A stretch of DNA of 64,000 nucleotides from Deinococcales bacterium (GCA_031414595.1 JANNVX010000098.1:64001-128000), one strand, 5' to 3'; counted from the first letter of the stretch, positions 1-64,000 are shown. Notes: a model not told the origin generated them from the sequence alone. Numbers and translations are program-made.

Positions 1-227
1 ATAATTTGGGCTTCTTTAGCGCTTAACCAAGTCCCCAGTTGGTTTTGAATCGCTTCTGGGTCGTCTTTGACCAGCCCTCGAGCCACCACCAAATGCCCAG
101 ACTCGAGTAGAGCATCTACTAAAAACTGCCCGCTTGAGTCGGTCTCGAGTGTGCGGGTATCAGAGATGGTCAGAATGGCGGCACGGATTTGTTTCTGGGC
201 AGCTTCTCGGTGTGATTCAGATGACAT
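1..227 (-). CDS. moaB: Molybdenum cofactor biosynthesis protein B/MogA family (partial, runs off the window edge)
   Basis: Not in the ORF track; manual translation from ATG at 227 gives MSSESHREAAQKQIRAAILTISDTRTLETDSSGQFLVDALLESGHLVVARGLVKDD, the MoaB/Mog N-terminal motif (TISDTR...D.SG...VKDD). Confidence 0.85.
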   Translation of the reverse strand, partial: MSSESHREAAQKQIRAAILTISDTRTLETDSSGQFLVDALLESGHLVVARGLVKDDPEAIQNQLGTWLSAKEAQI

Positions 228-252
228 AAACCACAGGTTAAGAGTCTGGCAC

Positions 253-792
253 TTAAAACACAAGTCTGATGTTCAATTCGCTTGCCAATAAGCCGTACAA
301 AACATCATCCACCCAAGCGCCCTTAAACCAAAAATTCTCGAGTAGATGTCCTTCTTTTCTAAATCCCAATTTCTCGAGTAAACGCATTGAACTGGTGTTG
401 CGTGGGTCGGTGGTCGCATGGACTCGGTGCAGTTTTAAGGTTGTAAAGGCAAACTCGAGCAGGGCGGTAGCGGCTTCGGTGGCGTAACCTTTTCCTTGAA
501 AAGCAGGGTCAAAACTAAAACCGATTTCAGCTTGGCGGTCCTCGAGCTTAAAAGCCAAATCTCCGATTAACTGGTTCTCGAGCGTCACGGCGATTTGATA
601 CCAATGGTCTTGGGTCGGCTGCTCGAGGTGCTGCATTTGGGCAATCAGGGTTTGTGCTGCCTCTAAAGTGTAGCTTTCCCATGTTTGCAATCGTGCCACA
701 TCGGGGTGATTGCGGTAGGCTGCAAAACGGGCTGCATCGGCGGGTTCAAATGCTCGTAAAGTCAAACGGGCGGTTTGTATTGCTTCAAACAT
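253..792 (-). CDS. GNAT acetyltransferase, RimJ/RimL family
   Basis: TARLTLR start, AEIGF, FQGKGYATEA, N.SS.RLLEKLGF..EG motifs; start moved to MFEAIQ. Confidence 0.85.
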   Translation of the reverse strand: MFEAIQTARLTLRAFEPADAARFAAYRNHPDVARLQTWESYTLEAAQTLIAQMQHLEQPTQDHWYQIAVTLENQLIGDLAFKLEDRQAEIGFSFDPAFQGKGYATEAATALLEFAFTTLKLHRVHATTDPRNTSSMRLLEKLGFRKEGHLLENFWFKGAWVDDVLYGLLASELNIRLVF

Positions 793-1032
793 AAATAACC
801 TTAAAACGCTCGCAAACAAGCGGCATCTCGAGTGTGGGTTGCAGACCAAGTGGCTCGAGAAATGCTTGCCAGTAGACTTCTATCTGTGGCTCGGACATGA
901 TTGCAAAGATAACCTAAGAAATTCTAAATCCAAATACGCACATTGACTTAGGGCTTAAAATTGGTGGATCATGCTTTGGTTAAGCCAGTTCTAAATTGTC
1001 TCGAGGCTGAGTTTTCCTGATATGCTCGCATC

Positions 1033-2172
1033 ATGACTGTGATTCTCGCACCGCGTGGCAAAGCCCGTTATGAAACTGGACACCCTTGGGTTTATAAGTC
1101 CGACATTGCTAAAATGCCCGATAAACCCGGTTTAGAAGACATCCAAGACATTCGTGGCAACCATCTTGGCTGGGCAGCCGTCAATCCAGCGTCTGAAATC
1201 ACGGTGCGTTTTTTATCAAAGGGTTCGGTGCGCCCCAACATCTTGCAGCGCTTGGAACGTGCCATTGAATTTAGGCGCTTTCTGCACGTCAATGGCGATT
1301 CGTTTAGGATTGTCCATTCGGATGCCGATGGACTGCCCGGTTTAACCATAGATAAGTACAACGATTACCTTGTCATTCAGCAAAATTGTGCTGCCCTCGA
1401 GCCGTACTTGCAAGATATGTTGCGGGTTCTAAAACGCGAATATAAACTCAAGGGTATTCTGGGGCGCTTTGACTCGAAAATCCGGACGCTCGAGGGCTTA
1501 GAAATGAAAGTTGAAGCCTTATTCGGCGATGTCCCAGAGTGGATTACCTGCCGTGAAGGAGAAATTAGTTACCGTGTTGACCCGTGGAAAGGGCAGAAAA
1601 CAGGGGCGTTTTTAGACCAGCGTGATAACCGCATTGCCCTTGCTGAAGTCGGTTTTGGTAAGGCACTGGATATTTTCTCCTACCATGCCTCATTTGGGCT
1701 GCATTTAGCTAAGGTCTGTGATTCGGTCGAGTGTATTGACTCGAGTGCCGCCGCCTTAGAACGCGCCGAGGACAACGCCCGTTTGAATGGCATCAGCAAC
1801 ATGATTTTTACCGAAGGCAATGCCTTTGATTGGCTGCACCAAACCGATACTGCTAATCGGTATCACACGATTTCTTTAGACCCACCCGCCCTTGCTAAAG
1901 CCCGCAAAGATTTGGACGGGGCGTATCGGGCGTACAAAGAACTCAATCTTCGGGCGCTTAAATTACTCGAGCCGGGTGGTTTTTTGGGGACTGCCAGTTG
2001 CAGCTTTCATGTCTCCGAAGCCGATTTTTACATCATGCTCGAGGATGCGGCTGCCGATGCTGGGCGGATGGTGCGGATTCTCGAGCGCCGTTCTCAGGCA
2101 GCTTGTCACCCCGAAGTGCTGAATTTTCCCGAGAGTCGGTACTTAAAATATGCACTTTTACAGGTGATGTAG
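1033..2172 (+). CDS. rlmI: PUA-domain class I SAM rRNA methyltransferase (RlmI/m5C1962-like)
   Basis: GHPWVY, DGLPGLTIDKY, GQKTGAFLDQRDNR, LDPPA motifs. Confidence 0.8.
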   Translation: MTVILAPRGKARYETGHPWVYKSDIAKMPDKPGLEDIQDIRGNHLGWAAVNPASEITVRFLSKGSVRPNILQRLERAIEFRRFLHVNGDSFRIVHSDADGLPGLTIDKYNDYLVIQQNCAALEPYLQDMLRVLKREYKLKGILGRFDSKIRTLEGLEMKVEALFGDVPEWITCREGEISYRVDPWKGQKTGAFLDQRDNRIALAEVGFGKALDIFSYHASFGLHLAKVCDSVECIDSSAAALERAEDNARLNGISNMIFTEGNAFDWLHQTDTANRYHTISLDPPALAKARKDLDGAYRAYKELNLRALKLLEPGGFLGTASCSFHVSEADFYIMLEDAAADAGRMVRILERRSQAACHPEVLNFPESRYLKYALLQVM

Positions 2173-2257
2173 GTCTGTTTGTAGGTTGTTAGGTTGTACT
2201 GAGTCCTAAGCTAAAAAAACCAAGACACCAGACTTTCTTAGTGTTAGACTTATAGCT

Positions 2258-4687: not shown

Positions 4688-5959
4688 ATGGCAAAAGTCA
4701 AAGAAAAACCAGTCATGCCAAAGCTCGAGACTCGAGCCGAAGTGATTATTCCCCAAGAACGCTCAGAATTAACGGGTGGGTCTGGTTTGCTGCACACCGA
4801 AATCATGCGCCTCAACGTTGGACCGCAACATCCAAGCACCCACGGTGTACTGAGAGTGGTAGTGGACATGGAGGGCGAATACGTCAAGCGGGTCGAACCG
4901 CACATTGGCTATTTGCATACTGGCTTTGAAAAAACCATGGAGAACCGCACCTACGCCCAAAACTTTACTTTTGCACCACGTATGGATTACTTGCACGGCT
5001 TTGGGTATGAGTTAGCCTACGCGCTGCCAGTTGAGCAACTTGTGGGCGCAGAAGTCCCAGACCGCGCTCGAGAAATCCGTGTGCTGCTGGTTGAACTCAA
5101 CCGCATCTCGAGCCACTTGGTTTTTTTAGGCACGGGCTTACTAGATTTAGGCGCTTTAACCCCATTTTTTTATACATTTGTCGAACGCGAAGCGATTTTA
5201 GATATTTTTGAAGCGATTGGCGGACAGCGCTTGCACCAAGGCTACTTTCGGGTTGGCGGCGTTGCCAAAGATACCCCAGACGGCTTTGAGGGCATGGTCA
5301 AAAAATTCCTTGATACGTTTGATGCCAAAGTAGACGAATACGAAAAACTCTTCAAAACTAATCCGATTTTTCTCGAGCGTACTCAGAACACTGGTATCAT
5401 GTCCGAAGCTGTGGCGCTGGATTTAGGCATCACTGGACCAAATCTTCGGGCTTCGGGTGTGGCGCTTGACCACCGCAAAACCACGCCGTATTCGGGTTAC
5501 GAACAATACGACTTTGATGTTCCACTTGGTACACATGGCGATAGCTTTGACCGCTTTGTGGTGCGTGTCCAAGAAATGCGTGAATCGGCAAAAATTTGTC
5601 GCCAAGCACTCTCGAGATTAAAGCCCGGCGCAATCCAAGACCCAAATCGCAAAATCAGCTTGCCGCCCCGCGAAGAACTCGAGACCAGTATGGAAGCTGT
5701 GATTCACCACTTTAAGCTGGTGACAGAAGGTTATCATCCGCCTAAAGGCGAGGCGTATGTGCCAACTGAATCGGCTCGAGGTGAACTGGGGTGTTATATC
5801 GTTTCTGACGGCGGCAGTATGCCCTACCGCATTCATTTCCGCGCCCCAAGCTTTGTCAATTTGCAAGCCTTGCCCGTAATTGGCATTGGTGGATTATTCG
5901 CCGACCTGATTACTGTAATCGCCAGCCTTGACCCCGTGATGGGCGACGTAGACAGGTGA
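4688..5959 (+). CDS. nuoD: NADH-quinone oxidoreductase subunit D
   Basis: [33 protein letters not shown]-terminus. Confidence 0.97.
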
Positions 5960-5963
5960 GAAT

Positions 5964-6686
5964 ATGAGTCAAACTGCCGAACAAGAATACATGGAACGAC
6001 TGACCCAAGCAGTCAACAACAGTGTGGATTTTAATCAAGAATTTAAGTCTGACTTACACCAATTCAAACTCGAGCAGTTTTACGAAATGTTTGCTCAAGA
6101 AATTCTGTTTTACAAACCTATTGAACTCTTAAACGGTCAAGTCTGGGGCGAAGGAATTCTCGTTACTTACGACGCTGACGACATGAAAAAACTGCATCAC
6201 TCGAGAATACTGATACCAGACCAGCCTGTCGAACTGATTAACGGACATTTTTTCAAAACACCAATATCCACACAAGCCCAAACCAATGCAGCCATTGATT
6301 TAAGCACCGAAATGCTTAGAGGATTAGGTGACAATGCTATTTCTCGAGGCGGTTATGACATCGAACTTGGTGCAAAATTTGTGGTTTCCCCAGAAATTGC
6401 CATTCTACAAGCCCCTCGGGAACGATACAATCATCGCAACGCCACTCTCGGCGACGTGTACTTATTGGTCGAAGTTCTAGCCGAAAAACCTAAGTATTGG
6501 GATTACAAACTTTCAGCCTATGCTCGAGCTTGCGTACCAGAACTCTGGGTGCTGAATACAAGCACCCAACAACTTGAGATTTATGCAGACTCAGACGGTG
6601 TGGAATTCTTGCATCAAGTCAAGCTCGAAAAAGGACAACCAGCCACACCACTCGAGTTTCCAGATGTGCAAATCAGGTGGTGGTGA
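5964..6686 (+). CDS. Uma2 (DUF820) family endonuclease-like protein, atypical
   Basis: VELING, LLVEV, K...YARACVPELWVLN; N-terminal motif appears duplicated. Confidence 0.75.
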   Translation: MSQTAEQEYMERLTQAVNNSVDFNQEFKSDLHQFKLEQFYEMFAQEILFYKPIELLNGQVWGEGILVTYDADDMKKLHHSRILIPDQPVELINGHFFKTPISTQAQTNAAIDLSTEMLRGLGDNAISRGGYDIELGAKFVVSPEIAILQAPRERYNHRNATLGDVYLLVEVLAEKPKYWDYKLSAYARACVPELWVLNTSTQQLEIYADSDGVEFLHQVKLEKGQPATPLEFPDVQIRWW

Positions 6687-7252
6687 TGACCCAAATTTTA
6701 GAACGCCCACAAGACGCTAATTACCCACATCGGTTTAGTGTTCTCGAGTTTGAACGCTTGTTTGAAGCAGGGGTTTTTGGTGAAGAAATTCAAGTTGAAT
6801 TGCTAGACGGAGAAATTTTTGTTATGCCAGAAATGGGAGATGACCACGCCGACAGTCTGACACGACTGACCAAACAACTGATTCGTAAACTCGGTGATTA
6901 CGTCGAGCTTGCCCCACAAATTCCGTTGGATTTACCCGAAGGTGAAACCCGTCCACTGCCCGATTTTATTGTGATTGACATTAAAAAATATGGTCGGCGT
7001 AAACCGATTCCTAGCGATGTGTTCTTCTTAATCGAAATTTCGGATACTACACTGCATAAAGACCGCAACCGCAAAGCCCAAATTTATGCCCGAAACGGGA
7101 TTCTCGAGTATTGGATTGTGAACTTAAAAAACAAGCAACTCGAGGTCTATCGCAACCCAGAAAATGGTGTTTACCCAAAACCACAAATTTTGCAAATCGG
7201 TCAAGCAATTGCGCCCTTGGCATTCCCAGATGTTTTAATTGAGTGGTGGTGA
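6686..7252 (+). CDS. Uma2 (DUF820) family endonuclease
   Basis: HRFSV, VELLDGEI, PLPD, LIEISDTTL.KDR..KAQIYARNGILEYWIVNL. Confidence 0.9.
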   Translation: MTQILERPQDANYPHRFSVLEFERLFEAGVFGEEIQVELLDGEIFVMPEMGDDHADSLTRLTKQLIRKLGDYVELAPQIPLDLPEGETRPLPDFIVIDIKKYGRRKPIPSDVFFLIEISDTTLHKDRNRKAQIYARNGILEYWIVNLKNKQLEVYRNPENGVYPKPQILQIGQAIAPLAFPDVLIEWW

Positions 7253-7262
7253 AAGGAGATTT

Positions 7263-7502
7263 ATGAGTGACGACGAAAAGAAATTACTTCATGCGATTCA
7301 AGATTTACACTTTGCTGTCAGGGATTTAAGTCAGGGATTTGCTCCCGCCAGACCTCGAGACGAAAGTGATTTACGTTACCAATCAAATGAATCTTTTGGT
7401 TCTGGGTTTAATTTACTACATAAAGCATTTGAAGTGATAATAAAAAATCAGGAAAAACAAATCGAATTACTCGAGACTATTGCTCGAAATAGTCGTAGAT
7501 AG
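7263..7502 (+). CDS. Hypothetical protein (79 aa)
   Basis: ORF with AGGAGA RBS between Uma2 and nuoE. Confidence 0.55.
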   Translation: MSDDEKKLLHAIQDLHFAVRDLSQGFAPARPRDESDLRYQSNESFGSGFNLLHKAFEVIIKNQEKQIELLETIARNSRR

Positions 7503-7518
7503 TTTTGGAGGTTCAACC

Positions 7519-9455: not shown

Positions 9456-9570
9456 ATTCTCGAGAAGGAGGTGAACCCGTGATGCAAGATTATTTATTTC
9501 AAAAGCTGCCACGCTCGAGCTTTGGGCGGCATTGCGGGTTTAGCTCCAAGTATTCTCGAATTGAATTGAA

Positions 9571-10545
9571 GTGGCGGATATGAAAGAAATTATTGTCCAC
9601 CAAGTCAACATTGCCCATTATCGGTTGCTCGAGCTAACGCTGTTGGCTGACCAAGCCAAACCGTTTTATGATTGGATTGAAAAAACTGCTCGACAAATCA
9701 CAGGCTCGCACTTAACCCTGAATGAATTGCTGCTGACTTGCACAAAAGAACAACTCAAAAGTATTGTGATGGCTTGTTATACCCAAACGACGCAACAAAA
9801 ACCATTTCTGTTTGATGGTGTTGGGCGAGCCTACCCCCATAAAAAAGCCTGTTTCTATTTTTTTGCATGGATGATACGAGATGCACCTCAACAACGACTC
9901 GCGCCACTTATCTCGAGAATGCAAAAACTTGTCAGACTCGAGAAAATAGTAATTGAAACAGATAGTCTAATCGAACTGATTTTCGAGTACAGAACGAATG
10001 TCAAGTCTTTTGAATGGCAAGCTGTTCGTGAGGTCGTGATTGACCGTTTAGAAGGCTCGAGGCGAAGTATCAGTGGTAACAAAATAGAAGCCGATGTGCG
10101 AATTGGTTTAGGAATTGCCTTGCAGTGGTATTACGCGGTTCATGGCAATTATGGTCAGTTCAAAGAAATTCAAATTGCTGATAAGCAAATCAAAGTCGGC
10201 AATCACACCATAGATGTATCTGCGAATTTAATTTTAGAGAACAAACAAAGTAAACAAATTTTTATTCCCGTGAAAACCCGAGAAACCGAAGGCGGCGGGC
10301 ATTCACACTTATTCACTCGAGACATCATGAATGCCATAACAGATATTCAATCAGCCAATTGTTTTATTGTGGCGGTCATCATTGCCGAAAATTGGTCAGT
10401 TCATGAACTCGAGACAATCAAAAATCAAATAGATTTGGTACTGTATTTCAACATGAACCCCAATGTTTTTACGGGTTTTGACCAAGCCTCACAAATACAA
10501 TTTAATCAACTTATCGAAAAAATTCTGCAAGGACAAGCATCATGA
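9571..10545 (+). CDS. Putative type II restriction endonuclease
   Basis: Overlaps the following MTase (ATGA); PD-(D/E)xK-like residues (IDVS...IPVKTRE); inferred from context. Confidence 0.5.
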   Translation: MADMKEIIVHQVNIAHYRLLELTLLADQAKPFYDWIEKTARQITGSHLTLNELLLTCTKEQLKSIVMACYTQTTQQKPFLFDGVGRAYPHKKACFYFFAWMIRDAPQQRLAPLISRMQKLVRLEKIVIETDSLIELIFEYRTNVKSFEWQAVREVVIDRLEGSRRSISGNKIEADVRIGLGIALQWYYAVHGNYGQFKEIQIADKQIKVGNHTIDVSANLILENKQSKQIFIPVKTRETEGGGHSHLFTRDIMNAITDIQSANCFIVAVIIAENWSVHELETIKNQIDLVLYFNMNPNVFTGFDQASQIQFNQLIEKILQGQAS

Positions 10546-11456
10546 ACGGTCAGGTTTTCCTTGGGGATGCTCGAGAGATTGCCGTTAATCTCGAGTATCA
10601 TTCTGTTCAAAGTATTATCACCAGCCCACCCTATTTTGGATTGCGAAATTATGCTGACCAGCCAAGCCCAGCCGAAATTGGACAAGAAGCGACAGTTCAA
10701 GAATATGTGACGAACTTGGTCAGTATTTTCCGCAGCTTAAAACAAGCACTTAAACCTGACGGATTACTCTGGCTTAATTTAGGCGATACATACCGCGAAA
10801 AGTCCTTGCTGGGTATTCCGTGGCGCGTTGCTTTAGCTTTACAAGATGATGGTTGGTTATTGCGTTCGGACATTATTTGGCATAAACCCAACGCCATGCC
10901 CTCGAGTATTAAAAATCGCCCAACTACAGACCATGAGTACATTTTCTTATTTGCGCTCAACCGAGATTATTACTATGATGCCGATGCCATCCGTGAGCCA
11001 CACATTACATTCACTGAGCAATCCAAAATGAAAGGTGGGCGAAATCACTTTGGGAAAGAAGGAGGCACACCCGAAAATGGCAAGAACGCTGGCAATAGTA
11101 ACCTTCATGACGGACGATGGGATCAAGCCTTTCACCCAAAAGGCAGAAACAAACGCACTGTATGGCAAATACCTCTAAGTAAATTTAGAGACTCACACTT
11201 TGCGGTTTTTCCAGAAAAACTTGTTGAAACCTGTATTCTTGCTTCGACTCGAGTGTCTGATGTTATCCTTGACCCATTTGCGGGGTCTGGCACAACTGGT
11301 GTTGTTGCCACAAAATTACAACGCCGATTCATAGGTATAGAACTTGTGAAAAAATATCAAGAAATGGCACAGGCTCGAATAAACCAAGCCAACCCACAAA
11401 CCGATTTATTTAGTGTTCTGACAGCCCAAGAAGAAATGACTCATGAAGCCGCCTAA
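10542..11456 (+). CDS. Site-specific DNA methyltransferase, beta class (probably N4-cytosine)
   Basis: ITSPPY catalytic motif precedes LDPFAGSGTT SAM-binding motif. Confidence 0.9.
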   Translation: MNGQVFLGDAREIAVNLEYHSVQSIITSPPYFGLRNYADQPSPAEIGQEATVQEYVTNLVSIFRSLKQALKPDGLLWLNLGDTYREKSLLGIPWRVALALQDDGWLLRSDIIWHKPNAMPSSIKNRPTTDHEYIFLFALNRDYYYDADAIREPHITFTEQSKMKGGRNHFGKEGGTPENGKNAGNSNLHDGRWDQAFHPKGRNKRTVWQIPLSKFRDSHFAVFPEKLVETCILASTRVSDVILDPFAGSGTTGVVATKLQRRFIGIELVKKYQEMAQARINQANPQTDLFSVLTAQEEMTHEAA

Positions 11457-11483
11457 GTTTAAGATAACTCGAGAAGGAAAACG

Positions 11484-11772
11484 ATGAGCCAAGCCAACCC
11501 AAGTTTTAACCCCACTTTTTGCAAGTGCTGTTCATCATTGCACCATGCCTTATGCTCAGTCCATGCCAAAAAAATCTCGAGAAGAGTTGAAAATTGCAGA
11601 GCAGAATTTCATTGAATTGCTTTGTAAAAATTTTAATGAACCAATAGAAGTGTCTTTTATTGAACTAGATACCAGTGATGAAGAAGCAAACCAGCGATTT
11701 TTAGAGTTTTTCAAGCAAGAGTTACCAAACGATTTTGATAAGTTGTTCTCTTCAGAAAAGGAAAAGGGGTGA
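11484..11772 (+). pseudogene. Small hypothetical gene, apparent +1 frameshift in a T run (or short ORF 11545-11772)
   Basis: RBS plus ATG at 11484 reads MSQANPSFNPTF; removing one T at 11516-11520 joins it in frame to ORF 11545-11772. Confidence 0.35.
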
Positions 11773-12047
11773 GTGAAATGTCTGTGACCATCGAAATTGA
11801 AAAAATCCATGCCAGTGCAATCAGTTTCCCCCGAGATGTGATTGAGGACTCAGAAACTCGAGAATTCAGGATTAAAGTTGTGGGCAACGAATTTGTTATT
11901 TATCCGGCACACATGAAATTCTTTGAAGTTGCCACACCTCAACAACGCGCCAATTTGCTGCTCGAGCGATTAGCGCACAATAAATCCAATCCAGATGCAC
12001 CTCAAATTCCAGATGAAGCTTTACGCCGCGAGAATTTTTACGAATGA
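11769..12047 (+). CDS. Putative antitoxin (VapB-like partner)
   Basis: Small ORF overlapping the PIN gene; C-terminal DEALRRENFYE typical of PIN-toxin partners. Confidence 0.65.
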   Translation: MSEMSVTIEIEKIHASAISFPRDVIEDSETREFRIKVVGNEFVIYPAHMKFFEVATPQQRANLLLERLAHNKSNPDAPQIPDEALRRENFYE

Positions 12048-12496
12048 ATATTTTTTTAGACACCAACATTTTTTTAAGACTGACCGATGAAAACTCGAGT
12101 CAACATGAACTTGTCGTTAAAGCTGTGGCGCAATTACTGGCTCGAGGAGACGAACTTTATTTTGCGCCACAAACAATTGTTGAATTTTGGGCAGTGGCAA
12201 CCAGACCACTACAAGCCAATGGTTTGGGGTTAGATGCCCAAACGATAGAACATAAACGAGAAGAATTTTCTGATGAATATAAAATGCTCGAGGAAACCCC
12301 AGCCTTATATGAAAAGTGGCTCGAGTTGGTCAAGCAACACGCGGTTCAAGGTAAGCAAGTCCACGACACCCGACTTGTGGCACAAATGTTGGTGCATAAT
12401 ATCAATACGATTTTGACAATCAACACGGCGGATTTTAAGCGATTCTCGAACATAACGGCTGTGCATCCAGAGCAAGTGCTAAAAGGTGAAGCATAA
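12044..12496 (+). CDS. vapC: PIN-domain toxin (VapC family)
   Basis: FLDTNI, EFWAVATRP, GKQVHDTRLVA, LTINTADF. Confidence 0.9.
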   Translation: MNIFLDTNIFLRLTDENSSQHELVVKAVAQLLARGDELYFAPQTIVEFWAVATRPLQANGLGLDAQTIEHKREEFSDEYKMLEETPALYEKWLELVKQHAVQGKQVHDTRLVAQMLVHNINTILTINTADFKRFSNITAVHPEQVLKGEA

Positions 12497-12548
12497 AGCC
12501 CAAGCAGAAAGCCAAAAGCCAAAGAGGTGAGTTAATGTCAGTTTTAGA
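12483..12548 (+). repeat. Cassette-junction repeat, copy 1 (type A)
   Basis: AAGGTGAAGCATAAAGCCCAAGCAGAAAGCCAAAAG...GAGGTGAGTTAATGTCAGTTTTAGA. Confidence 0.85.
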
Positions 12549-12729
12549 AATGATTCGAGAAGTTCCAAAATTAACCCATGCAGAGCAAAGTTTATTGCTG
12601 CTCGAGTTGCAAAAATACTTGCAACCACCAGCAGATTTAAGCCAAATTCCAACCAATGGTATAGCCGAGTTATTCCCGTTCTACGAAGCCATTAACGCCA
12701 ACCATGATTTATCCAGAATTGTAAAATAA
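12535..12729 (+). CDS. Small helical partner protein of retropepsin pair 1
   Basis: MSV start after GAGGTGA RBS; paralog of 14893, 20952 and 21632. Confidence 0.7.
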   Translation: MSVLEMIREVPKLTHAEQSLLLLELQKYLQPPADLSQIPTNGIAELFPFYEAINANHDLSRIVK

Positions 12730-12737
12730 GGCAACCA

Positions 12738-13142
12738 ATGAAATCTGTAACCTACCCATACTTACCAAATAGACAAAATTCTCTGATGCCGTATCTGCCC
12801 GTTCAACTCGAGCAGCAAGGTCGGGTTATAGAAACTATGGCGTTGGTAGACAGTGGCGCAGTTTCCAGTATTTTGCCATATTCAATGGGACTAGCCCTAG
12901 GATTAGATTGGCAGTCAGCCCAACAAGGTTTAGATGTGATTGGAGCAGTTGTTTCACCTTCAAAAAATGTTCGTGCGGTACTGCATATCCCGCAATTCTC
13001 GGCACTCGAGACGGGGTTTTCTTGGGTTGAAGATGATAATAAGCCGTTAATTCTTGGGCAGAGGATTTTCTTTTATCAGTTCCAAGTTCAGTTTGACGGT
13101 CGGCAACCAAGTTTTACTTTGACAAGGCAGGAACAAGCATGA
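12738..13142 (+). CDS. Retropepsin-like (clan AA) aspartyl protease, pair 1
   Basis: ALVDSGA catalytic motif; ILGQ..FF motif. Confidence 0.8.
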   Translation: MKSVTYPYLPNRQNSLMPYLPVQLEQQGRVIETMALVDSGAVSSILPYSMGLALGLDWQSAQQGLDVIGAVVSPSKNVRAVLHIPQFSALETGFSWVEDDNKPLILGQRIFFYQFQVQFDGRQPSFTLTRQEQA

Positions 13143-13186
13143 AGCCCAAGCTCGAGCAGAAAGCCAAAAGGGAAGATACAGATGGG
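13134..13186 (+). repeat. Cassette-junction repeat, copy 2 (type B)
   Basis: CAAGCATGAAGCCCAAGCTCGAGCAGAAAGCCAAAAGGGAAGATACAGATGGG. Confidence 0.85.
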
Positions 13187-13203
13187 TTACTCGAGGTCAA
13201 GCC

Positions 13204-14199
13204 ATGATAGATAAATCAGACCGAAATAAAACAATAGAATTATCTGAGGCAGAAAAAATGCTTTACTCAGAACGGTTAAGTCGTTTTGATCAATGTGCAA
13301 CCCAAGCCGATGTACAAAATAAAACCTTAAATCAAGATTTGTTCTCGGTACTCGAGTTTTTACCCACTGGTTTTGTGGATTTGTTGTTTATTGACCCGCC
13401 GTATAATTTAAGTAAAACCTTTAACGAAGTCAGTTTTAAGAAAACCTCGTTTGAAGAGTATGTGATTTGGGTAGACCTTTGGCTGTCCAAGTTGGTGCGA
13501 ACCTTAAAACCAAATGCTTCCGTCTATATCTGCTCGGATTGGCTTTCTTCACCTGCTATTTTTGAAGTTGCAAGACGTTACTTTATTGTCCGTAGTCGAA
13601 TCACTTGGGAACGCGAAAAAGGACGTGGTGCATTGACCAATTGGAAAAATTCATCTGAAGATATTTTGTTTTGTACAGTTTCAGATGAATATACTTTTAA
13701 TGTCGAACAGGTCAAACTCAAGAAAAAAGTGATTGCCCCATACCGCACCGATGATGGAATTCCTAAAGATTGGAGCGAAACCGACGATGGCAATTACAGG
13801 CTGACGCATCCATCTAACCTTTGGACAGACATCACCGTGCCATTCTGGTCAATGCCCGAAAATACTGAGCATCCGACGCAGAAACCCGAGAAACTGCTGG
13901 CTAAAATCATCCTCGCCAGTTCAAATGTTGGCGATATGGTTTTTGACCCATTTTTTGGCTCTGGAACAACCTTGGTGACAGCCAAAAAACTCGAGCGAAA
14001 CTTTTGTGGCGTGGAAATAGACCCATATTATGCTTGTATTTGCCAGAAGCGTCTCGAGATGGCAGAGTTAGACGGTGGCATCCAAGGCTACAGCCAAGGT
14101 GTGTTTTGGGAACGCAATACACTGGCAGAACAAAAATCTGAAGCCCCAAAGCCCAAAAAACGCACTTTGGCTCGAGAGCAACAGGAACAATTCTTATGA
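13204..14199 (+). CDS. Site-specific DNA methyltransferase, beta class (DPPY)
   Basis: FIDPPYN, HPTQKPEKL, FDPFFGSGTT. Confidence 0.92.
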   Translation: MIDKSDRNKTIELSEAEKMLYSERLSRFDQCATQADVQNKTLNQDLFSVLEFLPTGFVDLLFIDPPYNLSKTFNEVSFKKTSFEEYVIWVDLWLSKLVRTLKPNASVYICSDWLSSPAIFEVARRYFIVRSRITWEREKGRGALTNWKNSSEDILFCTVSDEYTFNVEQVKLKKKVIAPYRTDDGIPKDWSETDDGNYRLTHPSNLWTDITVPFWSMPENTEHPTQKPEKLLAKIILASSNVGDMVFDPFFGSGTTLVTAKKLERNFCGVEIDPYYACICQKRLEMAELDGGIQGYSQGVFWERNTLAEQKSEAPKPKKRTLAREQQEQFL

Positions 14200-14837
14200 G
14201 CCAAGTTTTTACCCATGGTTTTGAAACTCGCACCCTCGAGAGGCTGAATGCACTGGCAAAAACCATTCCTGTTTCGATTCTGGGCAGCCCCCGCTCAATT
14301 GGGGATACCATCCAAGATTTAATTGGACAGCACTTTCTCGAGTTAATGGGTAAGGAAATTTGTAAGACATACTCGAGTGAATCAGCACGGCGTTCAATGG
14401 CAGATGTGGCTTTTGAAGATTTTGATGGTAATTTTTATTCGGTGGATATTAAAACCCATAATTTAGGTACAAAATTTAATATGCCAAATTTGACTTCTGT
14501 GGAACGTTTAGCACGGCTTTACGAAAGTGACAAAGATTATTTTTGTGTTCTGCTGATTGCTTATGGTGTCGAAAACTCGAGTATTACTTTTGAAAGCGCT
14601 AAATTTGTGCCGATTGAACATATAGACTGGAATTGTTTAACCATAGGTGCGTTGGGTTGGGGGCAAATTCAAATTGCCAATTCAAACAAGTTTTTAACGA
14701 ATGCCACACAAACCAGAAAAGCATGGATGATTGAACTTTGCGATACGCTACTTGGTTTTTATCCTCGAGAAATTCTCAAAATTAACGAACGAATTGAGCA
14801 TTTTGTAGCCATTCGTCAGAAATGGATGGAGCGTTGA
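14196..14837 (+). CDS. Putative type II restriction endonuclease
   Basis: Overlaps the MTase; ADVAF...VDIKTH fits PD-(D/E)xK. Confidence 0.6.
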   Translation: MSQVFTHGFETRTLERLNALAKTIPVSILGSPRSIGDTIQDLIGQHFLELMGKEICKTYSSESARRSMADVAFEDFDGNFYSVDIKTHNLGTKFNMPNLTSVERLARLYESDKDYFCVLLIAYGVENSSITFESAKFVPIEHIDWNCLTIGALGWGQIQIANSNKFLTNATQTRKAWMIELCDTLLGFYPREILKINERIEHFVAIRQKWMER

Positions 14838-14845
14838 TATGATGT

Positions 14846-14906
14846 CAAGCATGAAGCCCAAGCTCAAGAAGAAAGCCAAAGAGGTGAGTTAAATGTCAGT
14901 TTTAGA
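14846..14906 (+). repeat. Cassette-junction repeat, copy 3 (type A)
   Basis: CAAGCATGAAGCCCAAGCTCAAGAAGAAAGCCAAAGAGGTGAGTTAAATGTCAGTTTTAGA. Confidence 0.85.
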
Positions 14907-15105
14907 TTATGTGCAACAAGCTAAAAATTATAGTTTAGACGAACGTCAAGAAATCATTGCCAGTCTCCAAGAACAAATTTTTGAGCAGCGACAAAAAACC
15001 ATGATAAAACCACGAAAAGATGGGGTGTTTGAAATTTGGTCTCCGACTGTAGATGCTGCTTCGATGGAAAAACTTCAAGAACGAGCAAGGCAGCGAAAAC
15101 TGTGA
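14893..15105 (+). CDS. Small partner protein of retropepsin pair 2
   Basis: MSVLDY...FEIWSP; stop overlaps the protease GTG. Confidence 0.7.
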   Translation: MSVLDYVQQAKNYSLDERQEIIASLQEQIFEQRQKTMIKPRKDGVFEIWSPTVDAASMEKLQERARQRKL

Positions 15106-15527: not shown

Positions 15528-15571
15528 AGCCCAAGCTCGAGCAGAAAGCCAAAAGGGAAGACACAGATGGG
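15514..15571 (+). repeat. Cassette-junction repeat, copy 4 (type B)
   Basis: AAGGTGAAGCATGAAGCCCAAGCTCGAGCAGAAAGCCAAAAGGGAAGACACAGATGGG. Confidence 0.85.
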
Positions 15572-15668
15572 TGTTGTGTAAGGTGGGAAAAGCCCCTCCA
15601 CAAGTAGATGTACTCAAGAAATTACAAAAATCAGGGAACAGCTCAAACGTTTTCAGAAGGTTAAAATA

Positions 15669-19048: not shown

Positions 19049-19057
19049 ATTACGAGG

Positions 19058-19120: not shown

Positions 19121-19122
19121 GT

Positions 19123-42730: not shown

Positions 42731-42763
42731 GTCTTCGCCTTGTCTCGAGCAGGTAAAAAATAA

Positions 42764-55035: not shown

Positions 55036-55599
55036 ATGATTAGTGTCACAGATTTAAGAAGCAACACCAAAGTTGAAATGGAAAATGGCTTATGGGAAAC
55101 CATTGATTATATGCACCAAAAAATTGGTCGCGGCGGCGCAAAAGTCGTGGCAAAATTTCGCAATCTCGAGACCGGCAGTATTGTAGACCGCACCTTTAGT
55201 GCCACCGAAAAACTCCAAGATATTTTTATTGAAGGTCGCACCATGCAGTTTTTATACAAAGACGGCGAAGATTTTGTGTTTATGGACATGGAAACATTTG
55301 ACCAACAAACCCTGCCAATGATTCTGGCAGGTGATTCGGCACGTTTCTTAAAGGAAAACACCGAAGTCGAAGTTCAGTTCTACAAAGAAAAACCCCTTAA
55401 AATTAGCTTGCCAAACATGATTGTGCTAAAAATCATTGAAGCCACGCCGGGCTTAAAAGGCGACACTGCCAGTGGTGGTGGCACAAAAGCCGCCAAGCTC
55501 GAGACGGGAACGACCATTCAAGTACCACTCTTTATTGAACAAGATGAATCGGTGCGCGTAGACACCCGCACTGGTGAATACCTTGGGCGCTCGAATTAA
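55036..55599 (+). CDS. efp: Elongation factor P
   Basis: HQKIGRGGA, FMDMETFDQ, PGLKGDTA, VPLFI, VDTRTGEY. Confidence 0.96.
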   Translation: MISVTDLRSNTKVEMENGLWETIDYMHQKIGRGGAKVVAKFRNLETGSIVDRTFSATEKLQDIFIEGRTMQFLYKDGEDFVFMDMETFDQQTLPMILAGDSARFLKENTEVEVQFYKEKPLKISLPNMIVLKIIEATPGLKGDTASGGGTKAAKLETGTTIQVPLFIEQDESVRVDTRTGEYLGRSN

Positions 55600-55674
55600 A
55601 GTTAAAAGCCGAAAGGTAGGCATCAAGCCAAAAGAAAAAGCCTCCCAGTACGCATAAAATTACAATTAGTCAGC

Positions 55675-55954
55675 CCCTCTCCCGACTCGCTTAGGCTCGC
55701 CACCTGTTGGAATGCCTGTAATTCTCTTCCTGCATTTCCACGAGCTTCGCTCGAACTGTTGTAGTCCCAAATCGCTTCGCTGGGGGAGGGTCTAGGGTAT
55801 AGGTTTTGACTTTATTTGTCCTTAAAAAATTTCTCTGGAACAATGTTTTTTGGTTTTCTAGGATAAAAAACCAAAGCAAAAAGCACCCTGAACAACCCTC
55901 TCCCGCGCTTTTTGGCGGGACGAGGGTAACGAGCCTAAGCGAGTTGGGTGAGGG
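55675..55954. repeat. Non-coding element with ~25-bp terminal inverted repeats (MITE/REP-like)
   Basis: CCCTCTCCCGACTCGCTTAGGCTCG ... CGAGCCTAAGCGAGTTGGGTGAGGG (2 mismatches). Confidence 0.65.
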
Positions 55955-56072
55955 TTGGGGCGCGGTATGGGCTACTCCATTTTGAGCAATGGGTTTTTGT
56001 TGTTCTGAACTATAAACTTCCTTGAATTGATGCCTATGGGACATCCTTTTAACCTTTTTCCCCTTTGACCTT

Positions 56073-58661
56073 TTAACCTGTATTCCTTAGTCCTGCGGCA
56101 ATACCTTGGATACTCAGCAACAAAGCTCGCTCGAGTGTGGCGCGTTCGGCATTTTCGGGCGGCATCGAACGGTAACGCGCTAATAGTTCGACTTGTACCA
56201 TATGAATTGGGTCTACATAGGGATTGCGGACTTCGATACTGCGTTTTAAGCGTGGTTCGGACTCGAGAAGTTCTGTACCAATTGCATTTTTAACGTGCTG
56301 AACAGCTTTGGCGTATTCCTCGAGAATAGCATCTTTAAGGTTTGTGTGTTCAGAAAGCGCCGCGTATTGCTTAAAGATACCCATGTCGGACTTGGCAAGG
56401 CTCATTTGGGCATTGTCCAGTAAACTGCGAAAAAATGCCCATTCTCGGTAAAGTTTGGCACTCAGTCCAGATTGCTGTTGCTCGAGGGCTGCCAGACCCG
56501 TCCCTAAGCCGTACCATCCAGGGACAGTGGCTCGGTTTTGCGTCCAACTCATCACCCACGGGATAGCCCGCAGGTTATCAAGCGTTGGTTTACCGGGGCG
56601 GCGTACTGGACGGCTGGCAATTCGCAGACTGGCGATTTCGTTAATCGGTGTGGCAGCCTCAAAGAACTCGAGAAAATCTGGGTCAAAAACCAAGGCTTGG
56701 TAGGCTTGGCTCGAGGCTGTAGCGGCAGTATTGAGGGCTTCACGCCACTCGAGCGGTACAGCTTGGGGTGATTGGGCAGCCGCCACGATAATGGCATAGA
56801 GCAACTGCTCGAGGTTGCGTTTTGCCAGTTCTGGGCTGGCGTAACGGTCGGCAAGGGCTTCGCCTTGTTCGGTCAGGCGCAGTCCCGCCCCGATTGTGCC
56901 GGGCGGTTGTGCCATGATACCGCGTGCCGCAGGTCCGCCGCCGCGTCCGATGCTTGTGCCGCGACCATGAAAAAAACGGTAGGGTACACCCGCTTTGGCT
57001 AGAATTTCGGACAAGCGTTCTTGGGCTTGGTACAACGCCCAGTTCGCAGCTAAGAAACCAGCTTCTTTGTTGCTATCCGAGTAACCAAGCATCACTTCTT
57101 GCACCCTTGAGCCGAGATGAGTGCGGTACACTGGGCTGTCCAATAAGGCTTGCATCACACTTGGACAATTTTCTAAGTCATGCGGCGTTTCAAAAAGCGG
57201 CGAAACATCAAGGGCGCTAAAACCAGCTTCACGCCCAAGAATCAGCGCCTCGAGAACATCCGAAGCCGTTTCGCCGTGCGAAATCACATAGCGTCCAAAG
57301 GCTTGCGGGTTGGTTTGCAAGTGCTTGAACATCACTTGTAATGGCTCGAGAACGGCACGTAATTCTTCGGTGATGTTTGCACCAATAGGCAAGAGTGGGC
57401 GGCGTGTCTCGAGTTCGTGTTCGAGCAGCGCCATACGTTCTGGTTCGCTTAAGTTGGCGTAATTCGAGCTAACCCCACCAAGGGTTAGGAGTTCTGCCAC
57501 CGCCATCTCGAGTTTGCCAGAAAATTCCCTTATATCCAAAGCCACCAAATGTGTACCGAACATCCTAGCGCGTACAAGCACAGGTTCAACAAAAACCCGT
57601 GCCGCCCGTTCTTGCCCTGCGGCAACCAAGGAATCCCTGACCCGCTCCAATATCGGCACAGCATCCACCGATTCAGTTTTTAAGCGTAAATGCAGCGCCT
57701 CGAGTTCTGCCCGCCACGGTTCTGGGGCAGTTGAATCCAAATGGACATGAACACGTTCACGGTGCTGCGAAAGCACTGCAAAAAGCTGTTTAACATCTTC
57801 ACGCAGACGCTCACGGGCTTGGGTCTGATGATAACTCAGGGTTTCGGCAGTCACTTCGGGGGTCACAAACGGATTGCCGTCGCGGTCTCCACCAATCCAC
57901 GAATAGAACTTAAGCGGTAAATTTACTTCTGGTGTACCATCGCCAAATTCAAGGCGCATTGCCTCGAGTAAATCGGCTTGCAAGGCTGGCAGCGACTGGG
58001 CAATAAAGTTGAGGTAATGCAAACCATTAACCACTTCGTCGTGAACAGTTGGATTACGTGCCTGAAGTTCTAAAGTCCCCCACAAGACTTCAACTCGAGC
58101 CGTGATTTGCTCCAAGGCGGTCTGGCGTTCGGAATCGGACTCGAGAAAGGTCATTTCGTGCGAAATATGTTCTAAGTGCGCCCGAACAGTGCGCCGCCGC
58201 AACTCGGTTGGATGCGCCGTAAAAGTGCTGCCCAACTCGACTCGAGCCAGTAAATCGGCGACCGTTTGGGCTGTAAAACCCAATTGTTTGAGTTGCCGAA
58301 TGGCATCGTGCAAGCTCTGTTTACGCGGTTCTAAATTGGAAGCTCGGGTATCACGCCAACGCACCCGGTGACGTTCTTCTGCCAAATTAGTCAAATGAAA
58401 ATACTGAGTAAAAGCCCGAATCAGGGCTTCGGCATTCTGTACCCCAAGTTTTTTAGCAATCGCTTCGAGTTCGCTTGGGGCGCTGGTGTCGCCGCTTCTG
58501 GCTCGTTTGGTCAGTTCCCGCACCTCTTCTTCGAGGTCAAAAAATTCTTGTCCTTCTTGTTCGATTAAAACAGCACCTAAGCAGCGCCCAAGTAAATCCA
58601 CATCCCTTGAGAGTGAATCGCGTGGAGCGCCGATTGACGCAAATAATTCGGCTGATGTCAT
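56073..58661 (-). CDS. ppc: Phosphoenolpyruvate carboxylase
   Basis: FTAHPTE, SWIGGDRDGNP, VMLGYSDSNK, FHGRGTSIGRGG, LRAIPW, RNTG C-terminus. Confidence 0.96.
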   Translation of the reverse strand: MTSAELFASIGAPRDSLSRDVDLLGRCLGAVLIEQEGQEFFDLEEEVRELTKRARSGDTSAPSELEAIAKKLGVQNAEALIRAFTQYFHLTNLAEERHRVRWRDTRASNLEPRKQSLHDAIRQLKQLGFTAQTVADLLARVELGSTFTAHPTELRRRTVRAHLEHISHEMTFLESDSERQTALEQITARVEVLWGTLELQARNPTVHDEVVNGLHYLNFIAQSLPALQADLLEAMRLEFGDGTPEVNLPLKFYSWIGGDRDGNPFVTPEVTAETLSYHQTQARERLREDVKQLFAVLSQHRERVHVHLDSTAPEPWRAELEALHLRLKTESVDAVPILERVRDSLVAAGQERAARVFVEPVLVRARMFGTHLVALDIREFSGKLEMAVAELLTLGGVSSNYANLSEPERMALLEHELETRRPLLPIGANITEELRAVLEPLQVMFKHLQTNPQAFGRYVISHGETASDVLEALILGREAGFSALDVSPLFETPHDLENCPSVMQALLDSPVYRTHLGSRVQEVMLGYSDSNKEAGFLAANWALYQAQERLSEILAKAGVPYRFFHGRGTSIGRGGGPAARGIMAQPPGTIGAGLRLTEQGEALADRYASPELAKRNLEQLLYAIIVAAAQSPQAVPLEWREALNTAATASSQAYQALVFDPDFLEFFEAATPINEIASLRIASRPVRRPGKPTLDNLRAIPWVMSWTQNRATVPGWYGLGTGLAALEQQQSGLSAKLYREWAFFRSLLDNAQMSLAKSDMGIFKQYAALSEHTNLKDAILEEYAKAVQHVKNAIGTELLESEPRLKRSIEVRNPYVDPIHMVQVELLARYRSMPPENAERATLERALLLSIQGIAAGLRNTG

Positions 58662-62542: not shown

Positions 62543-62571
62543 CAGTCTAACGCAACTACCTTAAGTTTTTC

Positions 62572-62620
62572 CCTTTCGCCCTTCGCCCTTCACCTTTCGC
62601 CTTTCGCCCTTTGCCTTTCG
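62572..62620. repeat. Heptamer tandem repeat (CCYTTCG-like x7)
   Basis: cctttcg cccttcg cccttca cctttcg cctttcg ccctttg cctttcg. Confidence 0.85.
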
Positions 62621-62645
62621 CCTATTTTTGTCTTAAACTAAATCC

Positions 62646-63149
62646 ATGCACCTTTACTTACTTCGTCATGCTCACACCGAAGACCTCGAGCTTGGACATT
62701 TAGACCAAAACCGCAAACTGACCCTCAAGGGACACGACCAAGCCAAAAGCCTACGCCGTACCCTGCAAACGCTCGAGATACACTTTGATACGGTCATCTC
62801 GAGTCCTTGGCGACGCGCTAGGCAAACCGCCAGTGCTTTAGAAAGTATCTCTGAAAATCTCGAGGTTTCGGATTTATTGGCAGCCTCACCTAGCCAAGCC
62901 CTACTGCATTTAATTGCCAAACAAAGCCAGACCAACCAGTGTCTACTTTTGATTGGACATCAACCATGGATGAGCCAACTGACCAGCCAACTCTTGACCA
63001 ACAACTCAAGTTTTGAAATGGCGTTTGAATACAAAAAATGCAGCCTGTACGCGCTCGAGTACAACGCACCTCCGTCGAACGAGTACAACCCCGAACACAC
63101 TTATTTACGTTTTATTTTGCCGCCTGGAGTGCTGAGGCGATTATTCTGA
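62646..63149 (+). CDS. sixA: SixA-type phosphohistidine phosphatase
   Basis: LYLLRHA, R.LT.KG, SSPW.RARQTA, LIGHQP. Confidence 0.85.
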   Translation: MHLYLLRHAHTEDLELGHLDQNRKLTLKGHDQAKSLRRTLQTLEIHFDTVISSPWRRARQTASALESISENLEVSDLLAASPSQALLHLIAKQSQTNQCLLLIGHQPWMSQLTSQLLTNNSSFEMAFEYKKCSLYALEYNAPPSNEYNPEHTYLRFILPPGVLRRLF

Positions 63150-64000
63150 GTACCACCGCGTTGCAATTCGTTAGCTTCTAAGAACAATGCTCGTCCGAAG
63201 GCTTTGCGAAATAAATCACCATGTTTGGAAGCCTCCCAGAGTTCGACTCGAGGGGTTTGAGCCGCAATTAAGCCAATCGTAATCCGTTCTTTTTCGATTT
63301 TTAGGCTTAAGTCCTGTACCCGTCCAGAACGCGAACGCTCGAGGTATTCGGCTAAACGCAAGCATGCGGCTAATCGCAGCAAACGTATTTCGTCATCTGG
63401 CTCGAGAATACGTTTGAACTGACCAAGTTTTGGGTCGCCCTTACGGTGATACTGCACCAACAATGCCAGTAAAATCTGCTCACGATGGGTAAAACCCGGC
63501 ATTTGGGTGTTCAGCACCAAGTACGCGCCATGCTTATGATGGTCATGGTAGGACACCGCCATGCCAATGTCGTGCAAAGAAGCCGCCGCATCGAGCAGCC
63601 GCGCCTCTGAAGCCCCATACCGATGAATTGGCTCGAGTGCCATAAACAACTTTCTGGAGAGTTTTCGCACATGCTGGGTATGATTTTCGTCTTGAGGATA
63701 ATGGGCAAATAAGTTCTGAACACTAAAAACCCGAACCTCTGGCAGTAAATGCGGTACTCGAGGCACAAATTCTTTGTAAAACGCCCCTTCACGCACCCCC
63801 TGCCCAGAAATAATCAGACTTTTAGCCCCGATTTCACGCAAAACCGTGCGGTAGACCAATGCCCCAGCCAAAATTGCATCGGCACGGTCAGCATGAATTC
63901 CAGAAATAATGGCGCGCTCATTAGTCGGTAAATCGAGTAAGCGCTGAATTAAACTTTCCAAAGCATCGCGTTTTAATTCGTAGCCATGCAGGGCATCAAG
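63101..64000 (-). CDS. ppx: Ppx/GppA exopolyphosphatase (C-terminal part; starts outside the window)
   Basis: DRADAILAGA, SGQGVREG, LHDIG...HHKHGAY HD domain. Confidence 0.88.
   Translation of the reverse strand, partial: LDALHGYELKRDALESLIQRLLDLPTNERAIISGIHADRADAILAGALVYRTVLREIGAKSLIISGQGVREGAFYKEFVPRVPHLLPEVRVFSVQNLFAHYPQDENHTQHVRKLSRKLFMALEPIHRYGASEARLLDAAASLHDIGMAVSYHDHHKHGAYLVLNTQMPGFTHREQILLALLVQYHRKGDPKLGQFKRILEPDDEIRLLRLAACLRLAEYLERSRSGRVQDLSLKIEKERITIGLIAAQTPRVELWEASKHGDLFRKAFGRALFLEANELQRGGTQNNRLSTPGGKIKRK

Follow-up and report, generated by a model that had tools for sequence, protein, structure and literature searches.

The hexamer CTCGAG is a highly iterated palindrome of an uncultured family of Deinococcales

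The DNA analysed here, referred to below as the window, is a stretch of 64,000 bases from a Deinococcales bacterium (GCA_031414595.1, JANNVX010000098.1:64001-128000; G000:C98:64001-128000 in our numbering), and belongs to a 4.49-Mb assembly of 120 contigs with a GC content of 47.2%. It holds the nuo (complex I) operon (3334-29646), and its genes and the DNA between them are strewn with the six-base palindrome CTCGAG, the subject of this study. The window contains 372 copies (5.8 per kb); dinucleotide-preserving shuffles of the window (n = 100) gave a mean of 8.23 (sd 2.86, maximum 18), and none of the 100 reached 372. A first-pass annotation of the window had counted 12 copies in the first 1020 bp and had described the motif as recurring in all reading frames and in intergenic DNA. 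The exact count is indeed 12, and with open reading frames (ORFs) called crudely all frames and the DNA outside ORFs are used (Table 1). In what follows, G000 denotes the source genome, G001 a relative of about 91% identity, and G013 a complete genome of the same family.

Genome-wide, G000 carries 23,235 copies of CTCGAG, which amounts to 5.18 per kb or about one per 190 bases. It is the commonest hexamer of the genome, with a both-strand count (46,470) three times that of the next hexamers, themselves overlaps of CTCGAG. The ratio of observed to expected counts (O/E) is 23.9, 43.6 and 18.1 under Markov models of order 0, 1 and 2, falling to 3.8 at order 3 and 1.16 at order 4. This fall is circular, because the lower-order words mostly derive from the motif itself: 70% of all CTCG, 69% of all TCGA and 42% of all CTC in the genome lie inside CTCGAG, and the pentamer CTCGA is followed by G in 90% of cases.

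A codon-aware test, which the first-pass annotation had put forward as one way to check the signature genome-wide, was run on 3,610 ORFs covering 3.88 Mb (longest ORFs of at least 120 residues, chosen greedily). Site density is 5.15 per kb within these ORFs, 5.32 outside them and 5.13 in intergenic pieces of at most 300 bases, and the in-ORF sites are read as CTC/GAG (11,878), nCT/CGA/Gnn (3,905) or nnC/TCG/AGn (4,193). Shuffling synonymous codons in 10 runs, with the protein sequence and the codon usage of each gene preserved, gave 1,939 ± 29 sites against the 19,976 observed in ORFs, a 10.3-fold excess. This null is conservative, since the motif raises the usage of its own codons; outside Leu-Glu pairs, CTC accounts for 7.9% of the codons for Leu and GAG for 20% of those for Glu. 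Non-ORF DNA taken alone (612 kb, 3,256 sites) gives O/E values of 28.6, 38.8 and 15.0 at orders 0-2. The annotation had held that the idea would fall if the enrichment vanished under codon and lower-order models; it persists under both, and an artefact of codons or lower-order k-mers is refuted by the synonymous shuffle, the in-motif k-mer shares and the non-ORF O/E. The excess of CTCGAG is confirmed as real and not compositional.

The proteome bears its imprint. Of 19,766 Leu-Glu dipeptides in G000, 60% are written CTCGAG, compared with 1.6% expected, and Leu-Glu is the most over-represented dipeptide of the genome (2.22 times expectation; the reverse, Glu-Leu, 0.98 times). Orthologues of nuoD carry 6-8 sites in the family, and the five from Deinococcus carry none, and several of these sites needed an amino-acid replacement, for example Leu-Glu in the family where Deinococcus has Leu-Asp. 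The force that maintains CTCGAG is strong enough to double the Leu-Glu dipeptides.

All 19 family genomes examined, spanning five genera and including G000, carry 4.3-7 CTCGAG per kb; they are kin and not independent cases. The GC content of the family ranges from about 0.45 to 0.62 and the motif excess is independent of it. Each genome has 0-568 copies of the reversed word GAGCTC. The NuoD protein of the window is 80-95% identical to five proteins from metagenome-assembled genomes named Deinococcales bacterium and 66-70% identical to those of Deinococcus species. An 80-kb sample of G013 (GC 0.58) held 4.8 CTCGAG per kb; its Leu-Glu pairs were 2.04 times as frequent as expected, and 56% of them were written as the motif. 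In GC-rich relatives outside the family the motif is found 1.4-1.9 times per kb and Leu-Glu stands at 1.2-1.4 times expectation, a level that is an ordinary codon-pair effect; the outside genome G019 was rejected as an intermediate, its 1.6 sites per kb being usual for such relatives. A Deinococcus-like genus avoids the word, with 128-942 sites per 3.5-4.8 Mb (0.03-0.27 per kb) and 0-0.09 per kb in eleven of its nuo loci. In this single uncultured family of Deinococcales, CTCGAG is a genuine highly iterated palindrome.

Within the Deinococcus-like genus (G020, G024, G028, G032, G036, G040; L006-L016, L019, L020, L023, L026) both CTCGAG and GAGCTC are strongly avoided, and despite this avoidance a search of 95 genomes from the family to which the genus belongs turned up no XhoI-family nuclease.

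To see how the motif changes over time, G000 and G001 were aligned over 253,321 positions at 91.3% identity. Where either genome has CTCGAG, 1,235 of 1,560 aligned windows are identical (79%), which ranks first among 952 hexamers with a median of 48%. The one-sided sites number 171 in G000 and 154 in G001, so turnover is balanced. Mismatches at third codon positions fall from 18.5% outside the motif to 7.2% within it, and in non-coding DNA from 9.9% to 5.8%. Each of the codons concerned is better conserved inside the motif than outside: CTC at 91.7% and 64.6%, GAG at 93.2% and 68.1%, TCG at 91.4% and 75.1%, and CGA at 87.7% and 72.2%, respectively. Judged from this alignment, no other hexamer is kept in place as firmly as CTCGAG, although individual sites continue to appear and disappear in balance.

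The near-misses behave in the opposite way. Variants one base removed from CTCGAG are conserved at 45.6%, compared with a median of 66.6% for ordinary hexamers (5th percentile 57.9%), and 14% of them stand opposite a full CTCGAG in the other genome. Among changed CTCGAG sites, 26% have at least three of their six bases altered, the highest share of the 952 hexamers (median 7%), and the alternates are mostly AT-rich synonyms for Leu-Glu, such as CTTGAA (19 times) and TTAGAA (10 times). The 24 flanking bases hold about 4 mismatches at multi-base changes as against 2.6 at single changes, so that the multi-base excess is explained in part by such sites lying in locally more diverged DNA. The pattern is one of two attractors, CTCGAG and the AT-rich background, with short-lived intermediates. 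The instability of one-off variants and the excess of multi-base changes at altered sites are new here.

Flanking sequence contributes nothing to the motif: at ten positions on each side in G000, base frequencies lie between 0.17 and 0.30, and the repeated unit is therefore the bare hexamer. A longer hidden motif and a dispersed repeat of the repetitive extragenic palindrome or miniature inverted-repeat transposable element type were rejected, as there is no conserved flanking sequence and close doublets have unrelated contexts. No regular spacing was found in G000 at the 0.5-5 kb scale, the distribution being Poisson-like (variance-to-mean ratio of counts 0.89, 1.01 and 1.56 in intervals of 500 bases, 1 kb and 5 kb; coefficient of variation of the gaps 0.99). 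Gaps shorter than 25 bases are under-represented. A spacing of 6 is absent because it would create GAGCTC, an avoided word (6 in G000), and a spacing of 7 is in excess, with 101 doublets whose contexts are unrelated.

Every contig of G000 carries the motif, at 2.3-8.6 per kb. Density follows local composition, from 1.04 per kb in 1-kb intervals with GC below 0.35 to 6.4 in those above 0.53, and the 15 CTCGAG-free stretches longer than 1.8 kb have a GC content of 0.32-0.44. Two AT-rich cargo stretches of the window (21161-21577 and 22297-22731) do lack the motif entirely, as the first-pass annotation had stated; alone they are weak evidence, since zero sites would be met with a probability of about 0.09 and 0.08 at the window's density.

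Other palindromes of six bases are nearly all strongly avoided in G000, about 42 of the 64 having an O/E below 0.2. The avoided words include GGCC (152 copies, O/E 0.01), GGGCCC (none), GAGCTC and GATC (O/E 0.14). Avoidance of GGCC is not tied to the CTCGAG excess, because one family member (locus L005) keeps GGCC at a normal level. The non-palindromic ATCGAC/GTCGAT is also depleted (O/E 0.06), the other non-palindromic NTCGAN words lying at about 0.6-1.2.

The first-pass annotation had likened CTCGAG to HIP1 (GCGATCGC), the highly iterated palindrome (HIP) of cyanobacteria, and this description fits: CTCGAG is an exact palindrome, 24-44 times over-represented, used in all frames and in non-coding DNA, present clade-wide and conserved beyond its codons. 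HIP1 is likewise over-represented tens-fold, in all frames and non-coding DNA and throughout its clade, and its sites and codons are more conserved than the same codons elsewhere (accessible text of PMC5861425), by the same test as was used here. It differs in belonging to another phylum, in having eight bases instead of six, and in a density of about 1 per kb (accessible part of PMC4390886) compared with about 5 for CTCGAG. The one-off variants of HIP1 are more conserved than controls, as far as the accessible text of PMC5861425 goes, whereas those of CTCGAG are less conserved than ordinary hexamers. For the HIP class a methyltransferase for the word or for a nested word would be expected (Elhai 2015, PMC4390886, accessible part); none cognate to CTCGAG or a nested word was recognised among the many matches to the five Pfam families searched, whose sequences do not reveal their specificities. 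The hexamer HIPs of single cyanobacteria (GGCGCC, GCCGGC and GCsGC; PMC4390886, accessible part) are also very frequent GC-containing palindromes of six bases. According to the same part of that source they are sporadic in single strains, each with a matching methyltransferase, whereas CTCGAG is fixed across a family of five genera with no matching methyltransferase found. The word CTCGAG does not occur in the main text of PMC4390886, and a full-text literature search outside subscription journals and supplements found no published report of CTCGAG enrichment in Deinococcales. CTCGAG is a second, denser counterpart of HIP1 and an independent case in Deinococcota.

Two other kinds of system invite comparison. 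The uptake signal sequences of Pasteurellaceae and the DNA uptake sequences of Neisseriaceae are non-palindromic words of 9-12 bases, found about once per kb; they are hyper-abundant, shared by related species, located within genes with a peptide bias, rare in foreign islands and probably spread by molecular drive. CTCGAG resembles them in abundance, sharing among kin, location within genes, peptide bias and scarcity in foreign DNA, perhaps also in spreading by drive, and differs in being a six-base palindrome and denser. In Escherichia coli the Dcm/Vsr system of very-short-patch (VSP) repair raises the frequency of CCWGG, by less than about 2-fold, and depletes one specific deamination product. 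Such a site-specific repair bias would likewise enrich a methyltransferase word; at CTCGAG, however, the transition neighbours TTCGAG, CCCGAG and CTTGAG have O/E values of 1.07-1.23 with no position-specific depletion, and Vsr is lacking from all 19 family genomes, so that enrichment driven by VSP repair was rejected. A Chi-like recombination hotspot was also rejected, since a palindrome allows no orientation skew and indel junctions are unenriched.

In the window, the nuo operon has cargo inserted in four or more slots (5957-7507, 9487-16030, 18410-19820 and 21094-22757), whose content differs from that of G001 and other family genomes; in Deinococcus alpinitundrae, nuoB-L is compact. The cargo includes nucleases of the Uma2 family, two N4/N6 methyltransferase cassettes, a PIN protein and small AT-rich ORFs. 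In place of the slot between nuoF and nuoG, G001 has 2.5 kb of other DNA, and the ORFs of the G000 slot carry 2.7-8.8 CTCGAG per kb. Taken together, cassettes of the nuo cargo that differ between G000 and G001 have 3-9 sites per kb, already motif-rich, and density can thus date only DNA from outside the family; cargo of long residence is as dense in CTCGAG as ORFs and intergenic DNA. The first-pass suggestion that motif density might date cargo acquisition stands for such outside DNA alone. Junctions of indels and cassettes between G000 and G001 showed no enrichment of CTCGAG (8 of 66 ends, some counted twice through overlapping loci, against 13.1% by chance).

HIP1 reportedly occurs in cyanobacterial clustered regularly interspaced short palindromic repeats (CRISPR), and CTCGAG too sits in such repeats, each CRISPR repeat of G000 holding one copy (Table 1). 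The 58 spacers (2,117 bases) hold 9 CTCGAG, where about 0.4 would be expected at random and 9.5 at the density of the host; GGCC and GAGCTC are both missing from them, and no spacer has a match in G000. By array, 8 of 26, 1 of 13 and 0 of 19 spacers bear the motif. The invaders are thus mixed, some matching the host in motif richness and others falling short of it. A triple-motif scan of viral contigs gave at least 126 stretches, the richest listed being GC-rich with GGCC and often GAGCTC, unlike the host. Two spacer cores gave no exact protospacer match, and an array query against the 19 family genomes returned nothing convincing.

The reading we favour, at a probability of roughly 0.4, is that a site-autonomous restoring force acts at the DNA level, exerted by a putative CTCGAG-recognising activity that biases repair or recombination. 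Such a protein would bias the correction of mismatches and heteroduplexes, or short-patch recombination, toward the strand carrying the motif, and the outcome would be a molecular drive affecting whatever DNA replicates in these cells over a long time. The drive may or may not be coupled to methylation of CTCGAG. We infer that the force acts on each site alone, since the sites are spaced in a Poisson-like manner and are about five times denser than distance-acting models would allow, a ceiling of about 1 site per kb being expected for a mismatch-repair ratchet that acts at a distance (PMC4390886, accessible part) or for a single uptake signal on each fragment.

A number of observations weigh against this restoring force. 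Conservation, balanced turnover and unstable one-off variants are predicted equally by per-site selection; drive and selection are not separable by sequence comparison, because the substitutions expected under the two are identical. In HIP1, conservation of this sort was read as selection (accessible text of PMC5861425) and clade-wide persistence was taken as a sign of function (Elhai, PMC4390886, accessible part), and the CTCGAG trait has persisted through five genera. Apart from the array with 8 of 26, the motif is present in 1 of 32 spacers of the remaining two CRISPR arrays, so not all invaders share it. The ORFs were crudely called, and the G000 assembly is 94% complete. The search for a responsible protein adds to these points. 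The XhoI-family nuclease (PF04555) is found in 0 of 19 family genomes and in no control genome, as against 7 of 301 genomes of the order, and Vsr in 0 of 19. G000 lacks any close homologue of the methyltransferases that adjoin XhoI-family genes in other members of the order, and none of seven G013 methyltransferases exceeds 38% identity to anything in G000, none being orthologous between genera.

Methyltransferases were sought with five Pfam families in 41 genomes, and counts refer to Pfam matches. G000 has 5 C5, 9 N4/N6, 9 Eco57I/TaqI-like, 10 N6_Mtase (some overlapping the Eco57I/TaqI-like matches) and 1 Dam-type. The methyltransferases found beside XhoI-family genes match G000 proteins at the level of the family, with 23-28% identity over at least 260 residues. 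The XhoI/PaeR7I-like system envisaged in the first-pass annotation did not turn up in the 19 family genomes, all of which lack the XhoI-family nuclease. A restriction-modification target of that type was rejected, as the nuclease is absent and the site stands at a 24-fold excess instead of at or below expectation. Nor was the link to methylation, uptake or recombination that the annotation had proposed borne out, given the missing XhoI nuclease, the lack of a methyltransferase orthologue between genera and the unenriched junctions. MutS (two genes), MutL, ComEC and DprA are encoded in G000 and are not informative.

Some features met in this search may be recorded in their own right. Outside the family, at G031:C1:1094188-1097598 (L302-L304), an XhoI-family gene is broken by stops and a frame change, and the adjoining ORF, an intact methyltransferase of 583 residues of the TaqI/Eco57I type, may be an orphan. 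An orphan Dam-like gene is common to G013, G019, G001 and others at 54-71% identity and missing from G000. The corresponding G000 locus (G000:C90:33093-35067) has, between the same flanking genes, an unknown ORF of 284 residues and a C5 methyltransferase; the matching G001 locus (G001:C245, L141:7079-9008) has an unknown ORF of 365 residues and the Dam-like methyltransferase. The difference looks like a cassette swap at one hotspot. A methyltransferase on contig C89 that bears TaqI_C resembles CamA and M.BseCI, which gives no indication of specificity.

The strongest rival to the restoring force, and nearly as likely, is natural selection on each site, with CTCGAG, methylated or protein-bound, serving as a functional tag: a mark of self or kin that would aid the uptake, recombination or survival of related incoming DNA, motif-rich invaders being mimics or kin-derived elements. 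The conservation and turnover are just as it would predict, the trait is present in all five genera, 8 of 26 spacers in one CRISPR array carry the motif, and ComEC and DprA are encoded, though both are too widespread to count as proof. Known uptake signals (about 1 per kb) are, however, about five times sparser, and the spacing of CTCGAG is Poisson-like instead of even. Where a fragment already holds dozens of sites, a further one should bring next to no benefit, yet sites have cost amino-acid changes while 40% of Leu-Glu pairs are still convertible by synonymous change; the want of a cognate methyltransferase among those found and the unenriched junctions (8 of 66 against 13.1%) also tell against a tag. 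For HIP1, a methylation-dependent rise in transformation has been described and an uptake signal proposed (accessible part of PMC13756078). We consider improbable a methylation-directed mismatch-repair ratchet of the kind Elhai advanced for HIPs, in which a CTCGAG methyltransferase would mark the template, a MutH-like nickase would read the mark, and errors that create sites would escape repair. G000 does have two MutS genes, MutL, many methyltransferases and a Dam-family gene adjoining a Sau3AI/MutH-like protein (Table 1), but that pair is most simply a GATC system, because GATC is avoided (O/E 0.14) and the Dam-family cut-off is passed, and Dam-type matches of its score class occur in only some genomes of one genus. 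The ratchet would saturate at about 1 site per kb (PMC4390886, accessible part), where 5.2 are found, and no methyltransferase is orthologous between G013 and G000. G013 itself comes close to a family genome of full motif density with neither a MutH-like gene nor a candidate methyltransferase. A MutH-like nickase, as an alternative identity for the C1 protein, would be unusual for the phylum.

Slimmer still are the chances that CTCGAG is bound by a protein that organises the nucleoid and is under selection for its part in chromosome structure. A role in the chromosome or nucleoid was suggested for HIP1 from its periodic distribution (accessible text of PMC5861425), and CTCGAG does occur on all contigs of G000, but it shows no regular spacing at 0.5-5 kb, and motif-rich CRISPR spacers from foreign DNA would not be expected. 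We know of no candidate protein. That the motif is a compositional by-product, whether of a CTC-GAG codon-pair preference, as the relic of a GC-rich ancestor or through lower-order k-mer bias, is hardly credible. The GC-rich relatives outside the family, with 1.4-1.9 sites per kb and 27-59% of their Leu-Glu written CTC-GAG, and the order-4 O/E of merely 1.16 point that way; they are outweighed by the 10.3-fold excess over the codon-aware null, the low share of CTC (7.9%) and GAG (20%) away from the motif, the equal density in non-ORF DNA, the use of two further reading frames and the origin of the lower-order words in the motif itself. A bolder form of the restoring force, which we think unlikely, is a dedicated motif-writing system, in which a sequence-specific nuclease or repair factor would convert near-CTCGAG heteroduplexes wherever DNA replicates, mobile elements included. 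The factor might be one of the expanded PD-(D/E)XK paralogues of the Uma2 family. If so, the system would be a genome-wide selfish gene-conversion drive that rewrites about 11,000 dipeptides of the proteome, and HIP-type motifs in general could be the footprints of drive and not functional signals.

The Uma2 family (PF05685) is expanded in the window (5964-7252) and genome-wide, with 4-39 matches per family genome; there are 32 in G019, 10-16 in the Thermus-like genus g9, 0-3 in the Deinococcus-like genus and none in family f4. The expansion alone is insufficient, because G019 has many copies without the motif excess. Nothing on Uma2 function was found among the papers listed by a literature search.

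HIP1 has gone unexplained for three decades, in part because it was confined to one phylum and one word. The Deinococcota case adds a different and shorter word at about five times the density, with a measurable effect on the proteome. Its sister lineages either avoid CTCGAG (Deinococcus) or possess XhoI-family systems (7 of the order's 301 genomes), so that traits shared by HIP-bearing lineages become testable by comparison. Its density speaks against distance-acting models, for instance those based on the range of mismatch repair or on one signal per fragment. In practical terms, CTCGAG distorts codon-pair and dipeptide statistics and marks DNA that is foreign to the family, and XhoI would cut family genomes about every 190 bases in digestion or cloning unless the site is modified.

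Table 1. Coordinates of the features described. Positions given without a contig are those of the window.
Feature	Position	Strand	Remarks
CTCGAG copies (372)	1..64000	.	184 CTC/GAG (Leu-Glu), 57 nCT/CGA/Gnn, 91 nnC/TCG/AGn, 40 outside ORFs
12 CTCGAG sites	77..1005	.	starts 77, 102, 144, 337, 373, 454, 541, 577, 622, 827, 854, 1000
nuoD	4688..5959	+	8 CTCGAG sites
Doublet CTCGAGnCTCGAG, closest spacing seen	4724..4736	.	spacing 7
Cargo slot nuoD/nuoE	5957..7507	+	two Uma2-family nuclease genes, 5.2 and 6.9 sites per kb; different in G001
Cargo slot nuoF/nuoG, 6.5 kb	9487..16030	+	two N4/N6 methyltransferases, PIN protein, unknowns
Motif-free AT-rich stretch, GC 0.355	21161..21577	+	inside cargo ORF, weak aspartyl-protease match
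Second spacing-7 doublet	22117..22129	.	
Motif-free AT-rich cargo ORF, GC 0.352	22297..22731	+	transposase-type helix-turn-helix
Third spacing-7 doublet	31749..31761	.	
Motif-free gap of 632 bases	55498..56130	.	contains one copy of a dispersed repeat of ~400 bases (55617-56040)
Three CRISPR arrays	G000:C11:14152-16143, C82:70753-71719, C101:44-1435		35-base repeats, two related types
Dam-family methyltransferase overlapping a 207-residue Sau3AI/MutH-like protein	G000:C1:26904-28483		

Two further features of the window deserve mention. A type I restriction-modification locus (HsdR, HsdS and HsdM) occupies positions 37137-45023, and between the genes for its subunits lie an IS200-like transposase, a gene with a NYN domain and a helix-turn-helix gene. 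The dispersed repeat at 55617-56040 has no CTCGAG in its window copy and overlaps an ORF of 117 residues without a family match; about 15-20 partial or full copies occur in G000, at 75-88% identity, and many more in G001, G005, G006 and G007.

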